Positions 1 through 14,298 of a stretch of DNA of 14,298 bases are shown piece after piece; positions within the stretch are counted from its first letter, which is position 1; every line of letters starts with the position of its first letter. The stretch is from a virus, in the UHGV virus genome UHGV-0208508, one strand, 5' to 3'. Under the pieces are notes generated by a model that worked only from the letters and a program-made list of their open reading frames with translations, was not told where the DNA came from and searched no databases. The translations under genes were made by a program, and so were the position numbers.

Positions 1-1
1 G

Positions 2-604
2 TCGAGCAACATGGTGCCGCCGATGTCGTACCGCTTTATGTACGGCCTGACTGAGTATCCGCTGGAAGGCAACAGCGCACTGCTGAAATCTCTTCAGGAC
101 AGCAACATCAACTACATCGGCACCGGCGCCGAAGGTGGACTCAGCAATAAAGTGCTGTTCACCGGCCGCATGCTCGATGGTAACCCGTTCAACTACTGGT
201 ATTCGGTGGCGTGGACGGCGATCAACCTTGAGCTCGACCTGGCGAATGAAATCATCAACGGCTCCAACACGACCGTTAACCCGCTGTACTACGAGCAGAA
301 GGGCATTGACCGCCTGCAGCGTCGCGCTCTGAAAACCATGCGTAATGGCATCAGCTACGGGCTGATCCTCGGTCGCGTCATCGACACGCAACTGACGCAG
401 GAAGATTTCGACACCGAGTATGACAAAGGCACTTACGCCGGCAACGCCGTGATCAACGCCGTGCCGTTCAGTAACTACAACAGCCTGAACCCCTCCGATT
501 ATCAGGAAGGCAAATATAACGGGCTGAGCGCCGTCATGACGCCGCGCCGCGGCTTCGAATCCATCACGTTTAACGTGAACGTAACGAACTTTGTAGGGGC
601 GTAA
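2..604 (+). CDS. Phage tail structural protein, C-terminal portion (possibly tail sheath); reading frame is open to the window edge so the 5' end is probably outside the window
   Basis: The frame has no stop between position 2 and the TAA at 602-604. The ATG at 11 has no ribosome-binding site within the 10 nt available. It lies directly upstream of a tube-sized ORF in a contractile-tail cluster. The sheath assignment is inference from gene order only. Confidence 0.55.
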   Translation, partial: SSNMVPPMSYRFMYGLTEYPLEGNSALLKSLQDSNINYIGTGAEGGLSNKVLFTGRMLDGNPFNYWYSVAWTAINLELDLANEIINGSNTTVNPLYYEQKGIDRLQRRALKTMRNGISYGLILGRVIDTQLTQEDFDTEYDKGTYAGNAVINAVPFSNYNSLNPSDYQEGKYNGLSAVMTPRRGFESITFNVNVTNFVGA

Positions 605-607
605 AAA

Positions 608-1045
608 ATGGCGAACCCATTAGTACCGCAGGGCTTCCTTAACCGCGTACGCGGGGCTCTTTCCGTCACGGACACACCGGCGCTGAACGTTTCTGCGTCG
701 TACCTGGCAAAGGACGGCATTAGCCTGCGTCCGGATGGCCCGGCGACCGACATCATCCCTACGATGACCGGAACCGTCGGCAGCCAGGCGCCGTATCAGC
801 AGGTAACGCTGACCGTGCATCTCCTGAAAACTCAGGGGCTGGGCGAAAGCTACCGGCAACGCTTTTTAACCGACACGTCGCTGGGTGAAATCGTGGTAAC
901 GCCGGATGCAACGACGTTCGGCAATATCACGCTGCTCAACTGCTATCTGGTCAACTTCAACGAGCTGGCTTTCAGCGGGATGGACCCGGCTTTTGTGGTA
1001 ACCATCAGCGGCTATATGGTCACCAACGACAACATGTGGGTGTAA
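608..1045 (+). CDS. Putative tail tube protein (145 aa)
   Basis: ATG at 608 is preceded by an AGGGG Shine-Dalgarno-like sequence and starts 3 nt after the upstream stop. Size and position (after the putative sheath, before the chaperone and tape measure) fit a tube protein. Function is inferred from synteny. Confidence 0.55.
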   Translation: MANPLVPQGFLNRVRGALSVTDTPALNVSASYLAKDGISLRPDGPATDIIPTMTGTVGSQAPYQQVTLTVHLLKTQGLGESYRQRFLTDTSLGEIVVTPDATTFGNITLLNCYLVNFNELAFSGMDPAFVVTISGYMVTNDNMWV

Positions 1046-1048
1046 TGC

Positions 1049-1621
1049 ATGAAAATTGACAAGAAACTGAATCTGGTCACCAACGTTACCCGCGAAGACG
1101 GCTCGATCGTATACCTGCATGTGACGCCATTCCCCTATGAGGTGGTGGAAGAACACTGCATCCTGCTGGGGAACCTGTTCACAAAATTCATCTCGCAGGT
1201 GGGTGGTCTTGGCGCCGCCAGAATCGCCGCGATGATGCTGAGGCAGAGCCTGAAAGCGGAAATCGATAACGGTCGGACAGGTCCGAACATCGTTGATGAA
1301 ATTCAGCGACTGACGGTCGTTATCCATAACGTCGGCGGCCAGTGGAACACCACGCCCCTTGAGATGGCATTCAAACAGGGGATTATCGACCCTGATGAGT
1401 ATCGCGAGGTCGAAGGCGAAGTGGTTTTTTTTATGGTTTCCTCTGCTATTCAGAAGGCAAACCTGATCGCGCCGACAGTGGGAACGGTGATCAAAATGTA
1501 CGATGGGCAACTAACCTCATCGAGCGTTACGGCGTTCCGCGATTCGTTGCAGACGTCGAAGCCGGATACCGATATCCCGACCCAGAATGCCCAGCCGGAA
1601 ACGTCATTTATACCCTCTTAG
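1049..1621 (+). CDS. Putative tail assembly chaperone (190 aa)
   Basis: It sits immediately upstream of the tape-measure gene, the conserved position of tail chaperones, and has an acidic C-terminal region. No frameshift extension ORF was found downstream. Confidence 0.45.
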   Translation: MKIDKKLNLVTNVTREDGSIVYLHVTPFPYEVVEEHCILLGNLFTKFISQVGGLGAARIAAMMLRQSLKAEIDNGRTGPNIVDEIQRLTVVIHNVGGQWNTTPLEMAFKQGIIDPDEYREVEGEVVFFMVSSAIQKANLIAPTVGTVIKMYDGQLTSSSVTAFRDSLQTSKPDTDIPTQNAQPETSFIPS

Positions 1622-1744
1622 ACTGGGCGTCTAATGAGGGATTCTGGCAGGTGATAAGGGAGATCACCGGCGAGGAGTATGCCAGCCCGGCGCAGTACCG
1701 GCAGCGCTACCTTCTCGCCGCGCTCAAAGAAAGAGGTTTCTTCA

Positions 1745-3562
1745 ATGGTAGCTAAGTCGATCGTCGACATTGACGTAAATGACGACAAGTTTGTCGCGTT
1801 TATGGAAAGGTTTCGCGAGTACCAGAGCGCGCTGGATGATTTACCGGAAGCCTGGCGAGTGGCTGCCGTTGGCATTGGCGAAAGCAGCAAGCAGACCGAA
1901 AAGGCCAAAGGTGAGGCGAAGGAGTTAGGCGCGGAGTTTAACGCCGTGGCCGAGGCCATTCTGACCATCAACAGCGGTATCGATCGGCTCAATACCAACC
2001 TGGAAGACTCGAAGAAAAAGCAGGGCGAATTCAACAAAAGCACCCGATCTGCGAAGGGCTTCCTCAGCGATGCGACGAAAGACGCTAAATCGCTGGCAGG
2101 TCACATCAAGGAAGCGACGGCCAGCCTTCTGTCCTGGGGTGGTATTGTCGGGATATTTACCGGCGTCCTTGGCATTGGCGGCCTGTTTGGCATCAACCGC
2201 CTGGCTGCCACCACCGGTGCCCAGCGGTTTACTTCTCTCGGGCTCGGGACGAGCATCGGCGCGCTGGATTCCACCGCCATAAACTACCAGAAAGCGCTGG
2301 GTAATCCGGCGGGGACGCTGGGCGCTATCCGCGATTCCCAGATGGACCTGTCGAAGCGCTGGACGTTTCAGGCTATGGGGATTAACAATCCCGACCAGGA
2401 CCCGGCCAAACTGCTCCCGCAGATGATCCGTAATGCGCGCGATATTTTCGTGCAGAACGGCAGCACGCTGCAGGGCGCACAGGCGCACGGCCTGACAAAC
2501 TTCTTTACGCTGGACGACCTGAACCGCTTCAAAAACATGAGCGATGAGGAGATCACCGCCATGGAGAAGCGCGCGCAGCAGGATGCGCGTATGTTGCAAA
2601 TTACCGACCAGCAGGCGCGTCAGTGGCAGGATTTTAACGTCCAGCTCGATTACAGCAGCCAGAGCATCAGAAACACGTTTGTGCGCGGCCTGGGTCCTCT
2701 CACACCTCAACTGAGAAAACTGTCTGATGCGCTGTCAGGCGCGATCGATACCGTCCTGAAATCCCCCGAACTCGGCAAGTGGATTGATGCGCTTGCCGGC
2801 GGCATTGAGCGATTCGGTAATTACCTCGCTTCTCCTGAATTTTCCACAGATGTAAGCAACTTTATGGACAAAGTAGAGAAAATGGGAAATCTAATTGGCA
2901 AGGTTATTGATTGGGTAACAGGGAAAGCGAGTATCTCTACTGCGGATATATCATCCGGGTCAACGATGTTGAGCCCAAGCACCATCATCGATCCGAAAAC
3001 GGGAAAATCCTATACTCCTGGAAGCAATGATGACCCGCATGTATGGGGCTGGCTCAAGGGTGTTAGGCGCTTCTTTGAAGATGGAACCGTTAAAGCTGTT
3101 GATCCCACACCTGCAAATACTTCCGACAGAAACAGGACTATTGCAGATCGATTTAATAATCCGGGAAATCTGCGGTGGGCTGAAGGATACAGCAGCGAGA
3201 ATACGAGAAGCGGTAAATTTGCCGTCTTCCCAACGCTGGATGAAGGCGTACTGGCGGCGACAAAGCAACTTCAAATGTATGGCGCTAAAGGAATAAATAC
3301 GGTAGGAGATATTGCAAGAAAATGGGCTCCTCCTAAGGAAAATAATACCGCTGAGTATATTCGGCATGTGGTTAAAACTACTGGATTTAATGAGAATCAG
3401 AAACTGAATCTCAATGATCCTCAGGTTATCGCGAAACTCATTTCTGCTATATCTCAAAAAGAAGGGGCTGGTAGCAGAGTTTCTGAGAGCACAGTCATTC
3501 AGATCTATAACAATACCGGCGGGAATGCAGTGGTAACTTCAGCGCAATTGGGGGCGAGGTAA
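1745..3562 (+). CDS. Tail tape measure protein (about 605 aa from ATG 1745; an alternative in-frame ATG lies at 1679)
   Basis: Strong ribosome-binding site AAGAAAGAGG before ATG 1745. It is the longest ORF in the tail module, with an N-terminal helical/charged region, a Gly-rich hydrophobic segment (LSWGGIVGIFTGVLGIGGLFGI), and a Q/A/R-rich helical central part. It sits between the chaperone and baseplate genes. Confidence 0.8.
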   Translation: MVAKSIVDIDVNDDKFVAFMERFREYQSALDDLPEAWRVAAVGIGESSKQTEKAKGEAKELGAEFNAVAEAILTINSGIDRLNTNLEDSKKKQGEFNKSTRSAKGFLSDATKDAKSLAGHIKEATASLLSWGGIVGIFTGVLGIGGLFGINRLAATTGAQRFTSLGLGTSIGALDSTAINYQKALGNPAGTLGAIRDSQMDLSKRWTFQAMGINNPDQDPAKLLPQMIRNARDIFVQNGSTLQGAQAHGLTNFFTLDDLNRFKNMSDEEITAMEKRAQQDARMLQITDQQARQWQDFNVQLDYSSQSIRNTFVRGLGPLTPQLRKLSDALSGAIDTVLKSPELGKWIDALAGGIERFGNYLASPEFSTDVSNFMDKVEKMGNLIGKVIDWVTGKASISTADISSGSTMLSPSTIIDPKTGKSYTPGSNDDPHVWGWLKGVRRFFEDGTVKAVDPTPANTSDRNRTIADRFNNPGNLRWAEGYSSENTRSGKFAVFPTLDEGVLAATKQLQMYGAKGINTVGDIARKWAPPKENNTAEYIRHVVKTTGFNENQKLNLNDPQVIAKLISAISQKEGAGSRVSESTVIQIYNNTGGNAVVTSAQLGAR

Positions 3563-4272
3563 TGGGATTCACACGTGAAATGTATAAGCTGGGTTTTGAA
3601 ATATCCCCAGTAATACTTTGCGGAGGGATAGCGCAGGCCATTCCTGGAGGAATGCTCCCGATCGTCGCTTTGACACAGAGCGCGAGCTTTGTTACGGGGC
3701 TGCTTGGAGGAGCCATAAACCTAACCGATCTGGATAAATATTTCTGCCACTGGCGACCGGTTCAGGGCGCCACAATGGTTGATTATGAAATTGCCAGATA
3801 CCCTTTCGCTAACCAGGTAGTAGCTGCGAACGCCTTGCTTGCTCAGCCTTTGCGCGTTTCGTTGGTAATGGAGGCCCCGGTCAATGAAAACACCGGGGCG
3901 ATGACAAAGCTCGTCACTATGAGTGCTTTGCAGTCTGTCCTTCAGGCGCATTCTAACTTAGGCGGCACGTTTATCGTCGCCACCCCATCCGTTATCTATA
4001 GCAACTGCATTTTGCGTGTAGTGAGGGACATTACCTCTGGTAACGATCCATTACCACAGCGTTCATGGATATGGGATTTCGAGCAGCCACTGATAACCGA
4101 TAATGGTGCAGAGCAGGCCGTGAACAATTTTTTAAACAAGATTGGCGCCGGGGATATGGTAACCGACCCATCCTGGACTAATACCGCCAATGCTCTTGGC
4201 AACACGCCTCTCGGGAGCTCTGTATCGGAAGCAATAACCGGCCTATTGGGTAAGTTGGGGGTAGGGCCATGA
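3562..4272 (+). CDS. Tail/baseplate assembly protein, uncharacterized (236 aa)
   Basis: Start ATG overlaps the tape-measure stop (TAATG) and is preceded by GGGGCGAGG. It is co-directional within the tail operon. No recognisable motif. Confidence 0.65.
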   Translation: MGFTREMYKLGFEISPVILCGGIAQAIPGGMLPIVALTQSASFVTGLLGGAINLTDLDKYFCHWRPVQGATMVDYEIARYPFANQVVAANALLAQPLRVSLVMEAPVNENTGAMTKLVTMSALQSVLQAHSNLGGTFIVATPSVIYSNCILRVVRDITSGNDPLPQRSWIWDFEQPLITDNGAEQAVNNFLNKIGAGDMVTDPSWTNTANALGNTPLGSSVSEAITGLLGKLGVGP

Positions 4273-4547
4273 CAACCCAGAATTATCCGTTTACCGGCAA
4301 TGATCGTCAAAGCATGACATTTACACCGATCCTTGATGGCACCGTCTATAACTGCCAGGTTAAATGGAACATTGCCGGGCTGAGGTGGTATGTCCTCATT
4401 ACAGATGGCTCTGGGAATACCATTCTAAATACCCCGCTCGTTGGCTCCGAGCTTAACGGTGGAATAAATATTATCTCCGGAGTGTTTAATTCGTCCTCCA
4501 TGTACTGGCGCGAACAGAATGGACTGATTGAGGTAAACAGTTCATGA
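4269..4547 (+). CDS. Small tail/baseplate-associated protein (92 aa), uncharacterized
   Basis: ATGA start/stop overlap with the upstream gene, a GGGGGTAGGG ribosome-binding site, and the stop overlaps the next start. Translational coupling pattern is typical of phage structural operons. Confidence 0.6.
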   Translation: MTTQNYPFTGNDRQSMTFTPILDGTVYNCQVKWNIAGLRWYVLITDGSGNTILNTPLVGSELNGGINIISGVFNSSSMYWREQNGLIEVNSS

Positions 4548-5581
4548 GATATTATGATATTGAGATAACCATTCCTGCTGAAGGTGCCTCTCCGGAAAGA
4601 ACGATAAAATACAGTAGCCATAAGAACGGAGTTTACAACCCCGGCGCCCTGATGATTGAGTTTGATATCCTCAGGTACGGTGAATCGACTCCCCAGGGCG
4701 AAACTCACCTGACCATCTGGGGTATTGGCCCAAAAGAAATGCAGCAGGCTCGCCAGAATTTTTTTGGCAAAAAAATTAAAATATTCCTTGGGATGAAAGA
4801 CGGGCTGCCATTGGCTGGCAAGGTTACCTCACCAAAACTGGTATTGGATGGCGTGATAAATCAGGTCTTTGGTAACTGGCAGGGTATTGAGTTACGACTT
4901 GACTTCATAATCGTGGTTGGTCCTGTCCAGAACGTGCCAAATAACAAACCCGTACCCCTTCCTTTAACCTTTGACTGGAAGGAGGGGCAGAAGCTTTCTG
5001 TAGCCCTCACGCAGTGTTTTATGAACATCAGAGGGTATACGTTCAATATCAACATAAGCGACCGGCTAATCCTTAATCATTACCGGGGGCTGTTTTGTGA
5101 TGACATTGTCACCCTGGCCAAGGACCTTAATGCTTTTTCACGTTCCAGAATTCGCGATAGCGGGTACTCTGGTGTAGAGATCGCAATAGTGAATGGTAAT
5201 GAGATCCGGGTATGGGATAACGATTATGATAACCACCCGGATAAGACTTCTGTTTCCAGCGCCGTAGCCAGAAGCAACAGCCCAACCCAAATAGATTTCA
5301 AGGATTTGATAGGGCAGCCGACATGGGTGGCATTTAACACAATCAGCATGGCGTGCGTAATGCGCGGTGATATTCAGGTTGGCGATCACATCCTGATGCC
5401 TAAAAAAAGCACTCCGTTGATACAGGCCTCTTCGTACTCTCAGTATCGAGAAGACTCTGCCTTTACTGGCGACTTTATTGTGAACTCCGTTCGCCTGTTA
5501 GGGAATAGCAGGCAACCAACGGCAGAGGCATGGGTAACAATTATTGAGGCTTCCCCTTTCATTAAGGCAGGTAGTGCATGA
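4544..5581 (+). CDS. Putative baseplate hub protein (345 aa)
   Basis: GAGGT ribosome-binding site. It lies immediately upstream of the spike gene, the position of the hub (P2 gpD / Mu gp44-type) in contractile-tail clusters. The assignment is positional inference. Confidence 0.6.
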   Translation: MRYYDIEITIPAEGASPERTIKYSSHKNGVYNPGALMIEFDILRYGESTPQGETHLTIWGIGPKEMQQARQNFFGKKIKIFLGMKDGLPLAGKVTSPKLVLDGVINQVFGNWQGIELRLDFIIVVGPVQNVPNNKPVPLPLTFDWKEGQKLSVALTQCFMNIRGYTFNINISDRLILNHYRGLFCDDIVTLAKDLNAFSRSRIRDSGYSGVEIAIVNGNEIRVWDNDYDNHPDKTSVSSAVARSNSPTQIDFKDLIGQPTWVAFNTISMACVMRGDIQVGDHILMPKKSTPLIQASSYSQYREDSAFTGDFIVNSVRLLGNSRQPTAEAWVTIIEASPFIKAGSA

Positions 5582-6294
5582 GCATCGACAACAAGCTTAA
5601 TTTTGCCTCAAGCATGAACAGGTTTACTGAAAGAAAGATTGAAAATGCGCTTCAAAAATCAGGGAAAGTTCTTCCGGCGAGCGTGGTTAAGCAAACTGGG
5701 AATATGATCACCGTCTCCTTCGAGCTAAGGGATATCCCATATGTTTTGCCGCAAGTGACTATCCCCTTATTTGGCCCTCAATATATTCGTTACCCTATGC
5801 AGCCGGGAGATAAGGGGATTGTTATCCCCGCAGATACTTACATTGGCGGCGTTAGCGGTCAGGGAGGCGGCATTGCAGATATGACTCCGCCAGCAAACTT
5901 AAGCGCCCTCGTTTTCTTGCCGATCAGTAATACCGAGTGGCAGGGTGTCGACGGACAGGTGGTGACGGTATACGGGCCGGAGGGTGTAACGCTGCGCGAC
6001 AGTGGCAGCAACACGACGTTTCTCCTGAAGCCTGACAGCATCGCCATTTCCACACCTGACAGCTTCACCGTCACCGTTGGCGGGACAGTTTTCTCACTGA
6101 CGGGTAGCAAATGGAGCCTTTCAGGCCAGGCTGGTCACCTGCAGGATTCAGTGGCCAGTACTAGCCCTGCAATCATGCACGCCGGGTGGCAGTCGCTTCT
6201 GACCTGGCTTAACAGCCATGAACATTCAAACGGCAACGATGGAAATGATACCGGGGGGCCGACTTCAACGTTTAACGGGAGTATCACCGAGTGA
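5578..6294 (+). CDS. Baseplate central spike protein, gpV-like (238 aa)
   Basis: ATGA overlap with the upstream gene. Gly-rich beta-type sequence with a C-terminal His-x-His motif (SHEHSNGNDGNDTGG), reminiscent of the metal-binding tip of P2 gpV-type spikes. It sits just before W-like and J-like genes. Confidence 0.65.
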   Translation: MSIDNKLNFASSMNRFTERKIENALQKSGKVLPASVVKQTGNMITVSFELRDIPYVLPQVTIPLFGPQYIRYPMQPGDKGIVIPADTYIGGVSGQGGGIADMTPPANLSALVFLPISNTEWQGVDGQVVTVYGPEGVTLRDSGSNTTFLLKPDSIAISTPDSFTVTVGGTVFSLTGSKWSLSGQAGHLQDSVASTSPAIMHAGWQSLLTWLNSHEHSNGNDGNDTGGPTSTFNGSITE

Positions 6295-6623
6295 GAACCT
6301 ATGGCCGAAACTCTGAGGGGAAGTGGGTCCTGGTGGAAACCGACGAAAATGGGTTTAATGACTTGGTGTATTTAACCACCCTGATCCAGAATCTGAAACT
6401 GGCGCCGCAGGAGTCACCCTTTTATGCGAACAACGGAATCCCGGCCGCCGGGTCGGTGATCCAGCAAATCCTGCCGACGTATTACGTAAACCGTATTCAG
6501 AAACAGTTCAGCCAGTATTTTTCCTCGCTGCAGATTGCACTGATCAGCGACGACCCGCCTGTTTATAACATCTCGGCAATCACAAATGCAGGTTCAAAAA
6601 TAATTACACAGGTGGCCGTATGA
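6291..6623 (+). CDS. Putative baseplate wedge protein (W/gp25-like, 110 aa)
   Basis: GTG start overlapping the upstream TGA (GTGA). Size and position directly upstream of the J-like gene fit the V-W-J-I order of P2/Mu-type baseplates. Inference from synteny and size. Confidence 0.55.
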   Translation: MRTYGRNSEGKWVLVETDENGFNDLVYLTTLIQNLKLAPQESPFYANNGIPAAGSVIQQILPTYYVNRIQKQFSQYFSSLQIALISDDPPVYNISAITNAGSKIITQVAV

Positions 6624-8038
6624 GCGATTTACCAGTCAGCTATACGTCAGCAGGCCCGGTTCCTCTGACGCCGGAAGAGCTACGAGCACAGCTCGTTTCT
6701 CAGGCAATTGCGCTATCTCCGGGACTCACAACTGATTTGCCTGGATCTCTGATTGAGGACGTGGCCAGTACCGATGTCGGCGCGCTCATCGTTTGTGATC
6801 AAGCAAGGGTTGACCTGATTAACTCGGTGGGGCCACTAAAGGCTAACCTGGCCATGCTGGAGCTTCTCGCACAGCAGGCTGGTATTCCTGGGCAGAAAAC
6901 GGCTGGCACAACAACAGTCCCGGTTCAGTTTTCCGGCCCCGCGGGATTTGTTATCCCACAGGGGTTTATTGTTTCTGATGGGACCTATACCTATTCAGTC
7001 AGTGATGCGACGATTATCTCGTCGTCTGGAGTATCTGCCAGCGTATCATGCGAGGGAACGGAGACCGGGACCTGGGCGGTGCCGGTAAATACGGTTAACC
7101 AGATCATATCCAGTCTACCGTCTGACGTCACCATCACCTGCACCAACCCGATCGCCGGCACTCCGGGTGCTGACCCGGAAACGAACTATCAGTTTCGTGA
7201 TCGCGTATGGCAGGCGCAGATGGCCACCGTTCAGGGATATCCTGGATTTATCCGGCAATATCTCACCAGCCTTGATAACGTGCAGGCGCGCCTGGTTTCT
7301 GTCATTCAGGACGGGGATAAATGGATAGTCATGTGTGCCGGCGGTGATATTTACGATATTGCTGGCGCGCTCTATAAGTCTGCGGGGGATATCAGCCGGC
7401 TGAAAGGGTGTTCACTGAACGTAACGGGAATCACGAATGCAAATCCTGGTGTCGTCAGCACAGACCTGACTCATGGTTACACTGACGGCCAGGTTATCCG
7501 GATCACTGGCGTTACCGGGATGACGGGTATTAATGACGTCCCTCTGACCGTGACGGTACTGTCTCCTCACACGTTTTCCATCGGGATTGACACCACGTCA
7601 TCCGGGACCTGGGGAGGCGGCGGCGAGGTGACACCGAACGTCAGAAACAATACCGTGACGGTGAATGACTGGCCTGATAACTACGTGATCCCGTTCGTGA
7701 CGCCATTGCTGCAGCGGGTCACTGTGACGTATCAGTGGGGGACAGAAAGTGTTAACTACCTGACAGATGCCACGGTCGCCTCTCTGGTCTCGGCGCCTAC
7801 GATTCAGTATGTGAACGGCATATTCGCCGGGAAACCGCTGAACGTTAACAACCTGAAAGACGCATTCTTACAGGCGATTAACTCGACAATCGACATGGGG
7901 CTGATCAGCACTTTAAACGTCGTGGTCACCATCAATGGTGTGATAACACCACCGGATGCCGGGACGAATATCATCAGCGGCGATAAGTTCAGTTATTTTT
8001 ATATCGCGTCGGATGGCGTGATCGTAACAGGGGCGTAG
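6620..8038 (+). CDS. Baseplate J-like protein (472 aa)
   Basis: ATGA overlap with the upstream gene and an AGGTGG ribosome-binding site. A large protein between the W-like and I-like genes, which is the conserved position of baseplate J / gp6-type wedge proteins. Confidence 0.7.
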   Translation: MSDLPVSYTSAGPVPLTPEELRAQLVSQAIALSPGLTTDLPGSLIEDVASTDVGALIVCDQARVDLINSVGPLKANLAMLELLAQQAGIPGQKTAGTTTVPVQFSGPAGFVIPQGFIVSDGTYTYSVSDATIISSSGVSASVSCEGTETGTWAVPVNTVNQIISSLPSDVTITCTNPIAGTPGADPETNYQFRDRVWQAQMATVQGYPGFIRQYLTSLDNVQARLVSVIQDGDKWIVMCAGGDIYDIAGALYKSAGDISRLKGCSLNVTGITNANPGVVSTDLTHGYTDGQVIRITGVTGMTGINDVPLTVTVLSPHTFSIGIDTTSSGTWGGGGEVTPNVRNNTVTVNDWPDNYVIPFVTPLLQRVTVTYQWGTESVNYLTDATVASLVSAPTIQYVNGIFAGKPLNVNNLKDAFLQAINSTIDMGLISTLNVVVTINGVITPPDAGTNIISGDKFSYFYIASDGVIVTGA

Positions 8039-8039
8039 C

Positions 8040-8744
8040 ATGCTGGACGATATCATCCGGTCGTATATGTATACGCAATACAACGACGATGAAAATCTGC
8101 GGGCGTTTTTTACTGCGTATAACTCGATGGCGCAGGGCATTTATGACTGGATGGTTAATGCCAACCTGCCGATTTTCATCGGTGACTACAACACCGGAGA
8201 TCAGCTCCGGTGGATTGCCCATGGCATCTATGGCGTTTTGCCGCCGGTGATTTCCAGCAGCGATCAGCAGGAGATAGGCCCATATAACACCTTCGAATTT
8301 AACCAACTGGCATTCAATGAATACCGGGTGATTGACCAGTCGAACCAGGTTGTTGTCTCCGATGACCTTTTTAAGCGGATCATGACCTGGAATTTTTATA
8401 AAGGTGACGGCTTCTATTTCTCTATCCCATGGATAAAACGGCGTATTCTGCGGTTCCTGTTGGGAGTGAATGGCACCGATATCCTCAATGACCAGCGGTG
8501 GAGTATATCGATCCAGTTTGTGGATGGCGGGATCGTGATATCCATCTATAAGGGGCGCCGCAGGTTCACGCGGAGCGCTATCTACAACGCATCGGCCTAT
8601 AACTCCAGGAAGTACAACCAGAAGGACACGGCCTTTGTGATCACCGAGGATTTCGAGTTCGCTATTTTCTTCAAGCAGGCCATGGATAGCGGCCTGCTTC
8701 ACATGCCGTTTTACCAGTCAGTCACGGTTGAGATATTTGACTAG
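8040..8744 (+). CDS. Baseplate/tail protein I-like (234 aa)
   Basis: Starts 2 nt after the J-like stop with an AGGGGCG ribosome-binding site. Position between J-like and the tail-fiber genes matches P2 gpI / Mu gp48-type proteins. Confidence 0.6.
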   Translation: MLDDIIRSYMYTQYNDDENLRAFFTAYNSMAQGIYDWMVNANLPIFIGDYNTGDQLRWIAHGIYGVLPPVISSSDQQEIGPYNTFEFNQLAFNEYRVIDQSNQVVVSDDLFKRIMTWNFYKGDGFYFSIPWIKRRILRFLLGVNGTDILNDQRWSISIQFVDGGIVISIYKGRRRFTRSAIYNASAYNSRKYNQKDTAFVITEDFEFAIFFKQAMDSGLLHMPFYQSVTVEIFD

Positions 8745-8996
8745 GTTTTTATCTCGATTATCTATTGTTATATACAAATGAGATTTAACGCACTGACAAA
8801 TTATATGCAGCACAACTATTGATAAAAACAAAATGGATGACATTTTTATCATATCTATTGGCGGCATTCCTTGCTGAAAAAGAAATCCAAATAAAATAGT
8901 AAGCAAGGCGCAAGAAAGGAGTATTAATAAAGTAGATAGCGTTCCTAAAAGTATTTTTAAAATAGCAATAGAAGCATTATTCATAATATTCACCAT
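8718..8996 (-). CDS. Hypothetical small hydrophobic (two predicted transmembrane segments) protein encoded antisense in an AT-rich island; may be an artefact of AT-rich composition
   Basis: 92-codon minus-strand ORF, strongly hydrophobic (ASIAILKILLGTLSTLLILLSCALLTILFGFLF and MSSILFLSIVVLHIICQCV). No convincing Shine-Dalgarno sequence at the first ATG (a weak GGTG precedes the second ATG). AT-rich DNA readily yields Ile/Leu/Phe-rich ORFs by chance. Confidence 0.25.
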   Translation of the reverse strand: MVNIMNNASIAILKILLGTLSTLLILLSCALLTILFGFLFQQGMPPIDMIKMSSILFLSIVVLHIICQCVKSHLYITIDNRDKNLVKYLNRD

Positions 8997-9002
8997 TTAA
9001 AA

Positions 9003-9026
9003 GGCCGCGCTTGCGGTTTTTTTATT
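9003..9026 (+). terminator. Putative rho-independent terminator-like hairpin with T-tract (CCGC-GCTT-GCGG followed by TTTTTTT), flanked upstream by an A-run so possibly bidirectional
   Basis: Short GC stem (4-5 bp) with a tetraloop, directly followed by 7 T residues on the plus strand. It lies about 20 nt upstream of the first fiber gene's ribosome-binding site. Confidence 0.4.
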
Positions 9027-9045
9027 GCCTAATCCCGGAGGATAC

Positions 9046-11790
9046 ATGGCACTAACCCTTTTGGCTACAAACAACGCAGAAAGCACGCTGGCTTCTGCTA
9101 TCAGCGCAACCGACACGTCGCTGATCGTTAGCGCTGGAACTGGTGCCGAGTTCCCTGATGCTGTGGCAGGCGAGAGCTACTTTAAACTCACGCTCACCGA
9201 TGCCGCCACCGGCTCACAGGTTGAGATCGTGAACGTGACAGCTAAGGCTGGGGACATCTTCACGATTGAACGTGCGCAAGAAGGAACGCTGGCGCGTTCG
9301 TGGGCGGCCAACGACATGGTTGCCAACATGATGACGGCGGATACGCTGAACATTATCGCTCAATATGCCCAGCAGGCAGCTGCATCAGCAGCACAGGCTG
9401 CTGAGTATGCAGATAACGCTTCTGACTACGCACAGAATAAGTTCACGTTCTTTAAGACCGCCAGCGATCCTGATGGCACTATTGCCGGGCTGGCCGCAAC
9501 GACTGAAGGGCAGTCATTCTGGGTAGCCCAAGGTCCAGATGCGCTTTCTGCTGCATGGCAGTATCAGAATGTTGCGGGTGTAGCCGTGTTACAGGCTAAG
9601 CAGCCAGGAACAGCGGCTATAACCGGGACAATCCGCGAATTTCCCACGCTGGAGGCGGCACAGGCCGACGCCGATGCTGGCAATATTCCTACAGGTTCAA
9701 ATGCGTATTATCGAAGCGCTGACGACACAACTCTTGCGATTGAGGTAATCAACAACGCCGGTACGTTGACAGCAACCGGAAGAAAAATTCCAGCGTATTC
9801 CGCTTTGCGCAGAGGCAACATTTTATTCGACGCATTTAATGAATATTCAGCTGTTGATCCTAAGTTTGGTGCCTGGGACTGGTATCGCGGAGCTACTGTT
9901 ACATTTAGTACTACTGATGCCAACATTCCGTTACCGACTCCAGTGGCACAGTATTCCGGCGTATGGTCTGCAGATAAATATTATGACCTTGCCCGCCTGC
10001 CTGTAAGGGTAGGCGATCAATTAACCTTTTCTGTGCTGGCATGGTTTCAGGATGCCGGTGCTAAGTTCCATATATTCTGGATGTCCGCGAGCGGTACGAT
10101 AATATCCTCAAAATCCGTAACTGGACTGGCTTCAGGAATTAATGTTCCAGTTTTAACAGATATTGTTCCTGCTGGGGCGTCGTATGTACGAATTCGCGTA
10201 GAAAACACGACAACAGGATCGTTCAAGGTGGGAGCCTATGCGTCCGCTGTTGGTTCTATTCAGCCTGAATTTATTCGTGCCGCTCCTGACAAGACCTATA
10301 TGTCAGCGATTGTCTCTTCAGGCATCGCTGGCCTAACCTCGCGCGTGGATGCGTTGCAGGGGGCCATTTCTGTTGGGTATCCGTATGCAGCGACCTGGCA
10401 GGTTGGTAAATTTGTAAACCCAAATACCGGGGAAATAACAGATAATGCTGCGCTGAACTGTACCATAATTCCTCATAGTGACGGGGACGGTTGGCTGGTT
10501 ACTGCTCTCGTTACTGGATCGGCCACAGCTCTGGCTGTGTATATGAATGCGGCTGGCACAGTGCTGGGAGTGGAGGGGCGCGGAACAACAACGCCGCAGC
10601 AGTATACGAATTACCGCCTTAACGTTCCGTCGGGAACCACGCAGATCGGCATAACCGGTCGTAATTCTGCTCCAATGTCTGTTAAGAAATTGGCCGTTGT
10701 TGAAACTGCTACTGTACTGGCTAGCATCGATTCTCTCGATTCACGTGTACAGAAAATAGAAGATTCGCTGGTTTACGATTTCGTTCAGCAGGATGTCCCT
10801 ATTACGTCTGGAGCATATATAAACCGATCTACCGGTGCCGTCGTAACAAACTCTGCATTTGATTGTTCGATATTTGACTATACAACAGGAGATCGCTGGA
10901 AAGTTACGGCAAGGGTGAATGGAACGAGCGTATCACTCGCTGTATATTTTAATTCAGTGGGCACTGTCATTGGGACGGAAGGCGATGGTACATCAGCATC
11001 TGTGGATTACATTGATTATGAGCTGACGCCACCAACCGGCACTGCCAGGATAGGCATCACAACACGGGTTGCACTTCCTATAGTTGCTAAAAAATATGTC
11101 ATTGTTCCCAGCGGAAGTACAGTAAGTCCGTGGTCGGGAAAAATTATTGATGTAATGGGAGACAGCAACGTAGCCTATAACAAATGGCAACCGCTGGTTG
11201 CTAGTGAACTTGGTTGTTCTTTCCTGAACCATGGTGTTGGTGGTTCAAAGATCGCCAAACCCGATAGTTCACCGACACAAATCAGCATGTGTGACGACGC
11301 CAGGATTAATGCCCTCGATACGACGGCCACTGCCTGGATTTGTGGCCCGTGGGGGACAAATGACTGGGCGCAAAATATACCCATTGGAACTATTAGTGAC
11401 ACTGTGAATACCACGGTCTATGGTGCGCTAGTCATAATTGCACAAAAGCTTAGGGCGAGAGCACCAACCAAGCCTATTTTTTGGGTTACTCCATTCAACG
11501 GAGATTATGAAACTGGGAGGACTAGTTCATGGGTTGATGGGGAAACTAACCAATATGGCAGGGTGTCTGATTATTCTGCTGCAATTCGAGCTGTAGCTCT
11601 GCGATATGGCTTCCCATTGATTGATTTAAATGCAGATTGTGGGTGGACAAAATTTAATAGTAGTTATTTTTTGCTAACGGAAGGTGATACTAACCCTTCT
11701 CATATTCATTTAAATGATAGTGCTGGTCCAGCCAGAATTTCGGAGTTGGTAATAGATCGTTTAACGGCCCTTGCGAATTTGGCCAACTAG
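9046..11790 (+). CDS. Tail fiber / tailspike protein with C-terminal SGNH/GDSL-family hydrolase (esterase-like) domain (about 914 aa from ATG 9046)
   Basis: GGAGGA ribosome-binding site before ATG 9046. N-terminal about 105 aa is homologous to the N-terminus of the downstream fiber. An Ala/Gln-rich probable coiled-coil segment follows, then beta-rich repeats. The C-terminus carries GDS (VMGDSNV), a conserved Gly block (NHGVGGSK), GxND (WGTNDW) and a His block (NPSHIHLND). Confidence 0.85.
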   Translation: MALTLLATNNAESTLASAISATDTSLIVSAGTGAEFPDAVAGESYFKLTLTDAATGSQVEIVNVTAKAGDIFTIERAQEGTLARSWAANDMVANMMTADTLNIIAQYAQQAAASAAQAAEYADNASDYAQNKFTFFKTASDPDGTIAGLAATTEGQSFWVAQGPDALSAAWQYQNVAGVAVLQAKQPGTAAITGTIREFPTLEAAQADADAGNIPTGSNAYYRSADDTTLAIEVINNAGTLTATGRKIPAYSALRRGNILFDAFNEYSAVDPKFGAWDWYRGATVTFSTTDANIPLPTPVAQYSGVWSADKYYDLARLPVRVGDQLTFSVLAWFQDAGAKFHIFWMSASGTIISSKSVTGLASGINVPVLTDIVPAGASYVRIRVENTTTGSFKVGAYASAVGSIQPEFIRAAPDKTYMSAIVSSGIAGLTSRVDALQGAISVGYPYAATWQVGKFVNPNTGEITDNAALNCTIIPHSDGDGWLVTALVTGSATALAVYMNAAGTVLGVEGRGTTTPQQYTNYRLNVPSGTTQIGITGRNSAPMSVKKLAVVETATVLASIDSLDSRVQKIEDSLVYDFVQQDVPITSGAYINRSTGAVVTNSAFDCSIFDYTTGDRWKVTARVNGTSVSLAVYFNSVGTVIGTEGDGTSASVDYIDYELTPPTGTARIGITTRVALPIVAKKYVIVPSGSTVSPWSGKIIDVMGDSNVAYNKWQPLVASELGCSFLNHGVGGSKIAKPDSSPTQISMCDDARINALDTTATAWICGPWGTNDWAQNIPIGTISDTVNTTVYGALVIIAQKLRARAPTKPIFWVTPFNGDYETGRTSSWVDGETNQYGRVSDYSAAIRAVALRYGFPLIDLNADCGWTKFNSSYFLLTEGDTNPSHIHLNDSAGPARISELVIDRLTALANLAN
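10405..11106 (+). repeat. Two tandem homologous domain repeats of about 100 codons each inside the first fiber gene (about 10405-10701 and 10810-11106), diverged at nucleotide level
   Basis: Protein-level alignment by eye: GWLVTALVTGSATALAVYMNAAGTVLGVEGRGTTTPQQYTNYRLNVPSGTTQIGITGR versus RWKVTARVNGTSVSLAVYFNSVGTVIGTEGDGTSASVDYIDYELTPPTGTARIGITTR. Confidence 0.6.
11131..11787 (+). other. SGNH/GDSL hydrolase-like catalytic domain at the C-terminus of the first fiber (predicted catalytic Ser codon at 11164-11166)
   Basis: Ordered motif blocks typical of SGNH hydrolases: GDS near the domain start, a conserved Gly, GxND, and a C-terminal Asp/His block. Assigned from motif order only, with no profile search. 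Confidence 0.6.
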
Positions 11791-11865
11791 ATATTTATTG
11801 TCTTTGAAGTGAGGCTATTTCTGCGATGTTTATTCTGATAATTCCATTATTTAACAGGGGTATAT

Positions 11866-12897
11866 ATGGCGCTTAAGCTATTAGCCAATAATAACGCAAA
11901 GAGTGTTCTCGCTGCGGGTATTAGCGCGTCCGCTACCGTTATTACCGTGGGTACCGGAGCGGGGGCTTTATTCCCTTCCCCTGTATCTGGACAGAGTTAT
12001 TTCAAATTAACGATAACCGACGCGGCCACGAAAACAATTTCTGAAATTATGCACGTCACGTCTGTATCCGGTGACGTGATGACAGTAATTCGTGGTCAGG
12101 AAGGAACTACGGCACGCGTATGGTCAACAAATGACATTGTCGCGAATCTAATGACAGCCGGATCATTGTTATCGTTCCTGCAGATCAGTAATAACCTGTC
12201 AGAAATTAAAGATGCCGGTGATGATGCGGTAAATGAAGCCCGTTATAACCTCGGAATATCTGATTCCTCTGGTTTTGTCGGGCGTTCACTTGGCGCTCCA
12301 AAAGTTTTCTATGCAAACGGAACCTATACGCGATCTCCTCTGGCCCGTTATGCAAAAGTAACGTTGACCGGTGCCGGTGGCGGCGGTGGCGGCTGCCAGG
12401 CATCTAATAACACCGAAACCTTTTCCGGTGCCGGCGGCGGCGCGGGTGCGACCATTATCGTATGGGTTGACCTGTCTGCTGCCAGTTCTTACGCGATTAC
12501 TGTCGGCAAGGGTGGTAAGGGCGGAGTTGGCGCAGTAAGTGGTGCGGATGGTGGTGCTACCTCGTTTGCCAGCCTGTTCTCAGCTCCTGGCGGGAAAGGC
12601 GGCGTGAAGTCAGGCGTGTCCAATACCGCCGGCGGCGCCGGAGGTACGGCGGCGACCGGAGATATCAGGATCAACGGTGGTACCGGCTCAGATGGACAGA
12701 CAGGCTCAAGCCTTCTGACGGGAAACGGCGGGGCGTCGTATTTTGGCGGCGGTGGCCGGGCGGGTTCTCAGGCCGGTATTGCTGGCGCAGCTCCCGGATC
12801 CGGTGGTGGTGGCGCGTATGACCTTGGGTTTACCGGTACGGCATTTACCGGTGGTGATGGTGCTACTGGCATGGCGATCGTGGAAGAATTCGCGTAA
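11866..12897 (+). CDS. Second tail fiber / receptor-binding protein with glycine-rich C-terminal domain (343 aa)
   Basis: AGGGG ribosome-binding site before ATG 11866. N-terminal about 105 aa aligns with the first fiber N-terminus (MALxLLAxNNAxSxLAxxISAxxT...SYFKLTxTDAAT...QEGTxAR.W..ND.VAN.MTA). The C-terminal about 180 aa are dominated by GG/GGG/GGGG motifs separated by short variable segments. Confidence 0.8.
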   Translation: MALKLLANNNAKSVLAAGISASATVITVGTGAGALFPSPVSGQSYFKLTITDAATKTISEIMHVTSVSGDVMTVIRGQEGTTARVWSTNDIVANLMTAGSLLSFLQISNNLSEIKDAGDDAVNEARYNLGISDSSGFVGRSLGAPKVFYANGTYTRSPLARYAKVTLTGAGGGGGGCQASNNTETFSGAGGGAGATIIVWVDLSAASSYAITVGKGGKGGVGAVSGADGGATSFASLFSAPGGKGGVKSGVSNTAGGAGGTAATGDIRINGGTGSDGQTGSSLLTGNGGASYFGGGGRAGSQAGIAGAAPGSGGGGAYDLGFTGTAFTGGDGATGMAIVEEFA

Positions 12898-12901
12898 TGG
12901 C

Positions 12902-14062
12902 TTACACTCCTGCACGACCATCGATGTAATCAGCCCACCACTGCATCATTTCTCTGCGCTTATCTAGATACTGAGCATGGTTGTAAATACCGCGCACAGA
13001 TCCGCCGTTGGCATGTGCCAGCTGCACTTCAATAGCGTCAGCAGGCCATTCGTGCTCGTTCATAATCGTGCTGAATTCATGCCTGAATCCGTGACCGCTT
13101 TCCAGACCCTCATAGCCGATTTGTTTGATCACAAGCAGTACCGCATTCTCGCAGATTGGCTTCTTCTTATCGTTGCGCCCGGCAAAAACAAACTCTGAGA
13201 CTGGTTTGGTGATTGAGCTTAGCGTAGTGAGAAGTTCAACCACCTGGTCTGACATAGGAACAACATGAATCTTGCGGCCCTTCATCACACTGGCGTCGAT
13301 AGTGATAATCCTGTTTTCAAAATCGACGTTCTTCCATAGCATGGAACGAAGCTCTTTTGTTCTGAGGGCTGTGTAGCGTAAAACTTTGGTCGCAATGAGC
13401 GATACGATACTTCCTGAAAATGTTGCCAGTGCTTTGTTGAATGCAGGGATCTGGTCTGCTGGGAGAAACGGGAAGTTCTTCTTGCGGTATCCCTTCATGG
13501 CGTCAGCAAGGTCAGGTGCCGGGTTATATTTAGCCCTTCCGGTGACAATAGCGTAACGGAAAACCTCGCCGCATCTTCTGCGTGCTTTGTTGGCTCGCTC
13601 CATTGCACCGCGATCTTCAAATCTGCGGATTACTTCCAGCAGTTGCATCGGCTCAATATCCTGAATTTCAAGGCCGCCGATGATAGGTAAAATGTCGTCA
13701 TCAAACATTTTTGCAAGTTCAGTTGCATACCCTACTGACCATACTTGCTTCTTGTGCTCGTACCATTCTTTGTAAATCGCACTAAAGGAATTGTTGTTAG
13801 ACGAAGCCTTTTTCGCTTTTACCGGATCGATGCCAACCGAGATGTCTTTCCTCGCGGTCCATGCTTTATCTCTTGCCTCCTGCAAAGTCATAAGCGGATA
13901 TTTTCCGACGGTCAGGATTTTCTCCTTACCGTCAATCTTGTAGCGAAGCTGCCATACCTTTTTCCCTGACACAGGGACATAAAGGTACAGGCCATTACCA
14001 TCGAGTAGGCGGTATGGTTTTTCTTTCGGCTTTGCTGCTTCAATCTGCTTAACGGTGAGCAT
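12902..14062 (-). CDS. Phage integrase, tyrosine recombinase of the P4/IntS-like family (386 aa from the ATG at 14060-14062; an in-frame GTG at 14096-14098 would add 12 codons)
   Basis: 398-codon minus-strand ORF with C-terminal catalytic-domain signatures (HGFRHEF for His-x-x-Arg, and RGIYNHAQY with the presumptive catalytic Tyr) and an N-terminal arm-type DNA-binding region. It lies about 125-160 bp from a co-oriented tRNA gene, the canonical integrase-tRNA arrangement. Confidence 0.9.
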   Translation of the reverse strand: MLTVKQIEAAKPKEKPYRLLDGNGLYLYVPVSGKKVWQLRYKIDGKEKILTVGKYPLMTLQEARDKAWTARKDISVGIDPVKAKKASSNNNSFSAIYKEWYEHKKQVWSVGYATELAKMFDDDILPIIGGLEIQDIEPMQLLEVIRRFEDRGAMERANKARRRCGEVFRYAIVTGRAKYNPAPDLADAMKGYRKKNFPFLPADQIPAFNKALATFSGSIVSLIATKVLRYTALRTKELRSMLWKNVDFENRIITIDASVMKGRKIHVVPMSDQVVELLTTLSSITKPVSEFVFAGRNDKKKPICENAVLLVIKQIGYEGLESGHGFRHEFSTIMNEHEWPADAIEVQLAHANGGSVRGIYNHAQYLDKRREMMQWWADYIDGRAGV

Positions 14063-14223
14063 GGGTAAAAATCCGGTGGGTAAAATTATTTTATCCACTT
14101 TTTACCCGTCATGGAGTGCGGCTGTCAACGATCTGACGCGAACCATTACGAACTGTGAATCTACGGAAGGCTTGATATTCAGGGGATTTTGCGGACTGGT
14201 ACGGATGGGAGCGAACTGATAAA

Positions 14224-14298
14224 TGGTGTCCCCTGCAGGAATCGAACCTGCAATTAGCCCTTAGGAGGGGCTCGTTATATCCATTTAACTAAGAGGAC
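14224..14298 (-). tRNA. argW: tRNA-Arg (anticodon CCU), 75 nt including 3' CCA; its 5' end coincides with the window edge
   Basis: The reverse complement reads GTCCTCTTAGTTAAATGGATATAACGAGCCCCTCCTAAGGGCTAATTGCAGGTTCGATTCCTGCAGGGGACACCA. It folds as a cloverleaf with a 7 bp acceptor stem (GTCCTCT/AGGGGAC), T-arm GCAGG-TTCGATT-CCTGC, and anticodon loop CUCCUAA (anticodon CCU). It matches my recollection of enterobacterial argW. Confidence 0.88.

Follow-up and report, generated by a model that had tools for sequence, protein, structure and literature searches.

A probable attL junction of a Chronis-like lambdoid prophage in the argW tRNA gene of Escherichia coli

The right-hand end of virus genome UHGV-0208508 can be read, with a probability that we put at roughly 93%, as the attL junction of a tailed lambdoid prophage of ~44 kb that carries Chronis-like structural genes and is inserted in the argW tRNA gene of E. 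coli. The window, by which we mean the whole stretch of 14,298 nucleotides that was analysed, extends from tail genes, inside which its left edge falls, to argW at its right edge. The module at this junction is the IntS/TorI recombination system of argW, already characterised in KplE1, HK620, Sf6 and CUS-3. A preliminary description, made from the letters of the DNA alone, had proposed that one prophage end is anchored here, and this stands: tail genes adjoin the integrase gene, and the other end of the prophage lies outside the window.

The sole tRNA gene in the window, at 14224–14298 on the minus strand, is a tRNA-Arg with the anticodon CCT (ARAGORN; Rfam RF00005, 63.4 bits). Alignment to K-12 MG1655 shows that the gene is complete and that 75 of its 75 nt are those of argW, in agreement with its earlier naming as an argW-type tRNA-Arg(CCU). 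The side of argW that faces the prophage is its 3′ end (14224). As had also been described, the tRNA and integrase genes are co-oriented, both on the minus strand with the tRNA first; the distance from the argW 3′ end to the intS start codon is 161 bp, in keeping with an earlier estimate of about 125–160 bp. This order and orientation correspond to the ‘STI’ arrangement of Panis et al. (PMC2951348).

The att core was delimited with a four-way alignment of the attL of the window, the attP of phage Sf6, and the attR sites of the related complete genomes MEI008 and elppa10. The only block common to all four junctions is TGGTGTCCCCTGCAG at 14224–14238, which we take as the core (O). The P′ arm, left of 14224, is common to the window and Sf6 attP; past 14238 on the right, the window continues as the body of the tRNA and Sf6 attP agrees with both attR sites (the P arm). 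The alignment thus follows B-O-P′ and P-O-B′ logic exactly. The matches of four free phages (Sf6, IME10, HK633 and N7) to the window likewise end exactly at 14238. The core is made up of the last 15 nt of argW, that is, 4 nt of the T-stem, the 7-nt acceptor strand, the discriminator A and CCA, and with the addition of base 14223 it becomes the 16-nt core CTGCAGGGGACACCAT quoted for KplE1 (PMC2951348); the same 16 nt are annotated as the attP core in the Sf6 record. At the argW 3′ end the core is present as CTGCAGGGGACACCA(T), the 15-mer occupying 14224–14238 and the 16-mer 14223–14238. The core had previously been placed at 14224–14245: its overlap with the tRNA 3′ end was correctly foreseen, and its extent is ~7 nt shorter than proposed. 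The attP of Klebsiella phage vB_Kpn_Chronis (MN013086) was dropped as a guide to the core and that of Sf6 used instead, as the Chronis core contains a variant tRNA 3′ half, GTGTCCCCTGCATACATCTAACC.

A second copy of the core is absent from the window, in which a 25-nt probe from the tRNA 3′ end (up to 3 mismatches) and a 15-nt probe (up to 2 mismatches) each match once, with 0.00–0.03 matches expected by chance. This is what would be seen if the partner repeat lay beyond the left edge, as had been suggested, and related complete genomes show such an arrangement. The second core copy is 44,563 bp away in MEI008 and 43,968 bp away in elppa10; torI is found ~75–90 bp from it in both, followed by chromosomal csc genes. 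The prophages of these two genomes are 97.7–97.9% identical to the window over 85–86% of its length. In K-12 the second copy, annotated pawZ, is 10,215 bp away, again with torI at ~75–90 bp. By analogy, the partner core and torI of the window’s own prophage would be expected ~30 kb past the left edge. The far flank of attR is the csc sucrose locus in MEI008 (3264–3706 of the stretch L002) and elppa10 (4127–4569 of the stretch L050), and dsdC in K-12; the base that follows the core therefore differs, and the repeat in MEI008 and elppa10 is 15 bp rather than 16 bp.

Empty attB sites were reconstructed in silico by joining the far flank to the tRNA, and were matched against 5,426 complete E. coli genomes. 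A precise ‘excised’ attB was present at 100% identity in 2,327 of these genomes (1,415 with the csc flank and 912 with the dsdC flank). IntS at argW, counted as a single match covering at least 80% of 12700–14298, was found in 1,862 of the 5,426, or about a third. Insertion and loss would thus appear to be precise at the core.

The only long ORF near argW is 12902–14098 on the minus strand. Within it, intS occupies 12902–14062 (minus strand) and encodes a P4-like tyrosine integrase, as identified through Pfam, PHROG 1 (integrase) and its match to K-12 IntS. The true start is the ATG at 14062, which is the annotated start of K-12 intS and lies downstream of the published promoter, and it is this start that gives a product of 386 residues and the 161-bp gap to the tRNA 3′ end. 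The GTG at 14098 was rejected: directly adjoining the −10 box, it precedes any transcription start and cannot be part of a message initiated beyond that box. Three Pfam domains were identified, all above their gathering scores: Arm-DNA-bind_3 (DUF4102; residues 2–86, E = 2e-25), Phage_int_M (93–188, 6e-28) and Phage_integrase (199–365, 5e-39). Residues 87–197 match PDB 2KJ8, the structure of the core-binding domain from the CPS-53 integrase. Comparison with IntS-type integrases, which had been proposed as a check, gave 379 identities to K-12 IntS among 381 aligned residues, with the mismatch confined to the last few residues (BLASTP). The label ‘P4-type’ given earlier is justified by the three-domain architecture and by 35% identity to P4 Int over the full length of the protein (402 columns, E = 4e-78). 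The exact IntS protein is indexed in 204 blocks and, among the matches listed, lies beside the tRNA and the genes of the yfdC-side flank in 8 of 8.

The catalytic set of IntS (R234, K261, H324, R327, H350 and Y360) is present. R234 and K261 align with the invariant R212 and K235 of lambda Int, while H324-x-x-R327, H350 and Y360 are kept in the alignment with P4 Int. Conservation in P4 and spacing from H350 point to Y360 rather than Y365 as the probable nucleophile. An inactivated catalytic tyrosine had been named as a finding that would refute the proposed integration module; with Tyr360 intact and the other catalytic residues in place, nothing in the protein suggests inactivation.

Between the tRNA and intS, the P′ arm of attL (14063–14223, minus strand) doubles as the intS regulatory region, and in alignment this 161-bp spacer differs from the attL of K-12 KplE1 by 4 substitutions. 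The functional 220-bp attL of KplE1, as bounded by its primers (PMC3509656), corresponds by eye to ~14039–14258. The PintS promoter is found at 14099–14128 on the minus strand, with a −35 box TTGACA (14128–14123), an 18-nt spacer and a −10 box TAAAAA (14104–14099); these are the hexamers given for KplE1 PintS (PMC2951348), and the whole stretch is identical to K-12. A weak ATGACG/AATAAT promoter from a generic scan was set aside in favour of this experimentally mapped pair. The positions of the TorI (excisionase) sites were transferred from PMC2951348 relative to the intS ATG, and their sequences were then checked. Block I1;2 (GTTCG ... GTCCG), at 14191–14218 on the minus strand, is identical to K-12, and block I3;4;5 (GTTCG, GTTCG and GATCG), at 14128–14155 on the same strand, abuts the −35 box. 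All five pentamers are kept relative to K-12, and 2 substitutions in the I3;4;5 block fall between them. A repeat search also revealed three GGGTAAAA/TTTTACCC repeats on the minus strand (14099–14107, 14078–14085 and 14063–14071), including one that overlaps the −10 box; two copies of this octamer are also present in the P arm (attR and attP), beside torI. We infer that these repeats are probably IntS arm-type (P′) sites, and their assignment to named sites is putative in the same way; in KplE1, P′1 is stated to overlap the −10 box (PMC2951348).

Coupling these features with the work on KplE1, a mechanism can be outlined. The catalytic domain of IntS would act on the 15-bp core common to the phage attP and the argW 3′ end, while contacts with the GGGTAAAA-type repeats in the arms presumably fall to its N-terminal arm-binding domain. 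Since the phage DNA reproduces the 3′ end of the tRNA exactly, argW would survive integration intact, and intS would come to lie 161 bp downstream of it in the same orientation. Transcription of the integrase gene would start at a sigma-70 promoter of its own within attL and, by homology to KplE1, that promoter would be repressed by IntS and by TorI, for which the five sites are kept. Excision would need IntS, IHF and TorI, the last encoded at the far end beside attR, and would regenerate attB and attP. In KplE1 itself, repression of PintS by IntS and TorI and the need for IntS, TorI and IHF in excision have been described (PMC2951348, PMC3509656). By analogy with that system and with the related genomes, we infer that the window’s copy would be capable of excision and that its own prophage genome would contain attR and torI.

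The likeness to KplE1/CPS-53 of K-12 (argW-intS ... torI-pawZ) thus extends to the tRNA, the 15/16-nt core, the PintS hexamers, the five TorI sites, an integrase with 379 of 381 identical residues, and a 161-bp attL spacer with only 4 substitutions. KplE1 differs in being a 10.2-kb remnant with gtr genes beside intS, whereas intS in the window abuts intact Chronis-like tail-fibre genes, and its IntS differs from that of the window in the last 5 residues. The P22-like phages Sf6, HK620 and CUS-3 have the same attP core, and their int and P′ arm DNA is 96.8–97.7% identical to the window over 12928–14238; however, they are short-tailed and their virion modules are unrelated, such that the recombination cassette alone is held in common, and Sf6 carries oac beside int. 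Chronis has the same xis-attP-int order, colinear structural genes, and an integrase that is 85% identical with the same C-terminal tail, but at the DNA level int reaches only 77% identity, and the attP core of Chronis carries the variant tRNA 3′ half described above. P4 resembles the window in its three-domain integrase, an attP core ~150 bp upstream of int and arm repeats around the int start; it differs in its att core and in its longer C-terminus (Int of 439 residues), and no TorI-type site array is seen in the P4 annotation. The lambda Int/Xis/attP system likewise has a heterobivalent tyrosine integrase, arm and core sites, and a requirement for a recombination directionality factor and IHF. 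Lambda Int is nevertheless only 20% identical, its attP lies downstream of int, its attB is not a tRNA gene, and its int and xis are co-transcribed, whereas int in the window is served by a promoter of its own within attL, and the two genes come to lie at opposite ends of the prophage in this system.

Islands, too, use argW and P4-like integrases, and a genomic island or integrative element of non-phage origin was considered. The DNA beside int instead encodes a tail fibre/spike, a Gly-rich tail fibre protein, a baseplate-J-like protein and a transglycosylase/tape-measure-like protein (Pfam, PHROG), and the window is colinear with the isolated phage Chronis at 93% identity over 74% of its length. 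We rejected the island on the strength of the tail genes and give it next to no probability. A less remote, though still unlikely, alternative to an intact prophage is that the IntS/argW module is real and the prophage behind it defective, to the degree of KplE1/CPS-53 or worse, so that neither excision nor phage would result; such a prophage may lack attR or torI. The window does not reach its far end, cryptic IntS-argW remnants occur widely (CPS-53 of K-12 being only 10.2 kb), and the relative in elppa10 has frameshifted or truncated tail genes. Against this, all ORFs in the window’s 14.3 kb are open and colinear with the free phage Chronis, int and attL are intact, relatives hold full 44-kb prophages with torI and attR, and even the KplE1 remnant still excises (PMC2951348).

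Several features of the phage body may be recorded here. The 914-residue tail fibre/spike (9046–11790) contains an SGNH/GDSL (Lipase_GDSL_2) esterase domain, and its gene is followed by that of the Gly_rich_2 tail fibre protein (11866–12897). Among relatives, no other part varies as much as this segment, and those that we numbered L003–L010 carry different spikes. Between the gene for a 234-residue protein and the tail fibre gene, in a gap of 38% GC, lies a 92-residue, strongly hydrophobic ORF (8718–8996, minus strand) that is antisense to the tail genes and has no match in PHROG; it may be a moron-type membrane protein.

The linkage of this phage body to int and argW was examined through related DNA. 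The exact tail-fibre protein is encoded on a 14,338-bp metagenome contig (L046) with identical gene coordinates, which ends 40 nt past the tRNA, and on 49-kb contigs that are 99.2–99.8% identical to the window and reach ~10 kb past its left edge. Past the tRNA, the 49-kb contigs carry genes with the Pfam families and order expected of yfdC, mlaA and fadL, and we therefore take the host locus to be E. coli argW and the architecture to be real. It is very unlikely that the int-tRNA end was joined to the body in assembly, through an int gene shared by several argW prophages. Such an artefact would fit the near-sameness of the MEGAHIT-style contig L046, from which all differences (15, and 20 from a second contig, L042) lie inside int, and the composition of the window’s int allele, a patchwork of variants in circulation that has only one base (13145) private to it. 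However, the order body-int-tRNA is the same in 16 complete E. coli genomes, and the 49-kb contigs continue across the tRNA into the chromosomal genes; at most the fine int allele would be chimeric, and not the architecture.

The int allele itself was compared over its coding DNA (12933–14062) with related loci. Alleles of intS are 2–4% apart and heavily mosaic, natural ones differing by 20–49 nt and 0–5 residues. Among 30 distinct alleles, pS was 0.13 and pN 0.003 (pN/pS 0.023), and all four gametes were present in 49% of informative site pairs. The window’s allele differs from a common one by 37 substitutions, every one synonymous, and encodes the same protein; artificial recoding was considered and rejected, since all natural alleles differ from each other likewise. 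The allele as such is absent from isolate genomes, where the best match is 97.4–97.8%, and none of the 27 IMG/VR contigs recovered with a 61-mer exceeded 97.6% identity in int. Positions 1–13021 are identical between the window and contigs L046 and L042, and the differences to these two and to a third contig, L045, fall in 13022–14006. Differences confined to int may reflect exchange between argW prophages, by recombination or recent gene conversion, or else a consensus of several strains formed in metagenome assembly, and the window’s allele may in part be such a consensus.

The 3′ end of int has a separate affinity. Alignment and BLASTP place the last codons (DYIDGRAGV*) at 12902–12932 on the minus strand; the last 5 residues (GRAGV) and the DNA downstream (within 12860–12932) match Chronis and E. 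coli ETEC4091, and not the IntS of K-12 or Sf6, while phage matches to the int module start at 12928–12933. As the last codons are of Chronis type and the remainder of K-12/Sf6 type, the point of module exchange lies in the conserved QWWADY-coding block at the int 3′ end. In ETEC4091 (NZ_CP122617.1; 4001–16988 of the stretch L049) the same phage body, 99.2% identical to window positions 1–12988, adjoins ybhB-bioA, the location of lambda attB. Only the last ~29 codons (~87 nt) of intS remain there, as a fossil, and no integrase is annotated at the ybhB-bioA end of the body. The ETEC4091 prophage has exchanged this integration module for the lambda att site. Since intS alleles are reshuffled while the protein is nearly frozen, int in the window is a hybrid and ETEC4091 retains an intS remnant, one could go further and regard the intS gene as a recombination joint through which whole phage bodies move between attachment sites. 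We consider this a rather doubtful extension; if it were true and reflected a selected ‘linker’ role of the conserved QWWADY-coding block, or host selection on IntS, it would add modestly to the theory of modular evolution in phages.

In conclusion, the analysis reveals no new biology; it fixes one boundary of a probable prophage exactly, with the crossover block at 14224–14238 and argW intact. Direct homology to a system studied both in vitro and in vivo also identifies the chemistry of integration and its control. These assignments are useful for prophage annotation and for the design of excision PCR primers, with torI and attR predicted ~30 kb upstream of the window.
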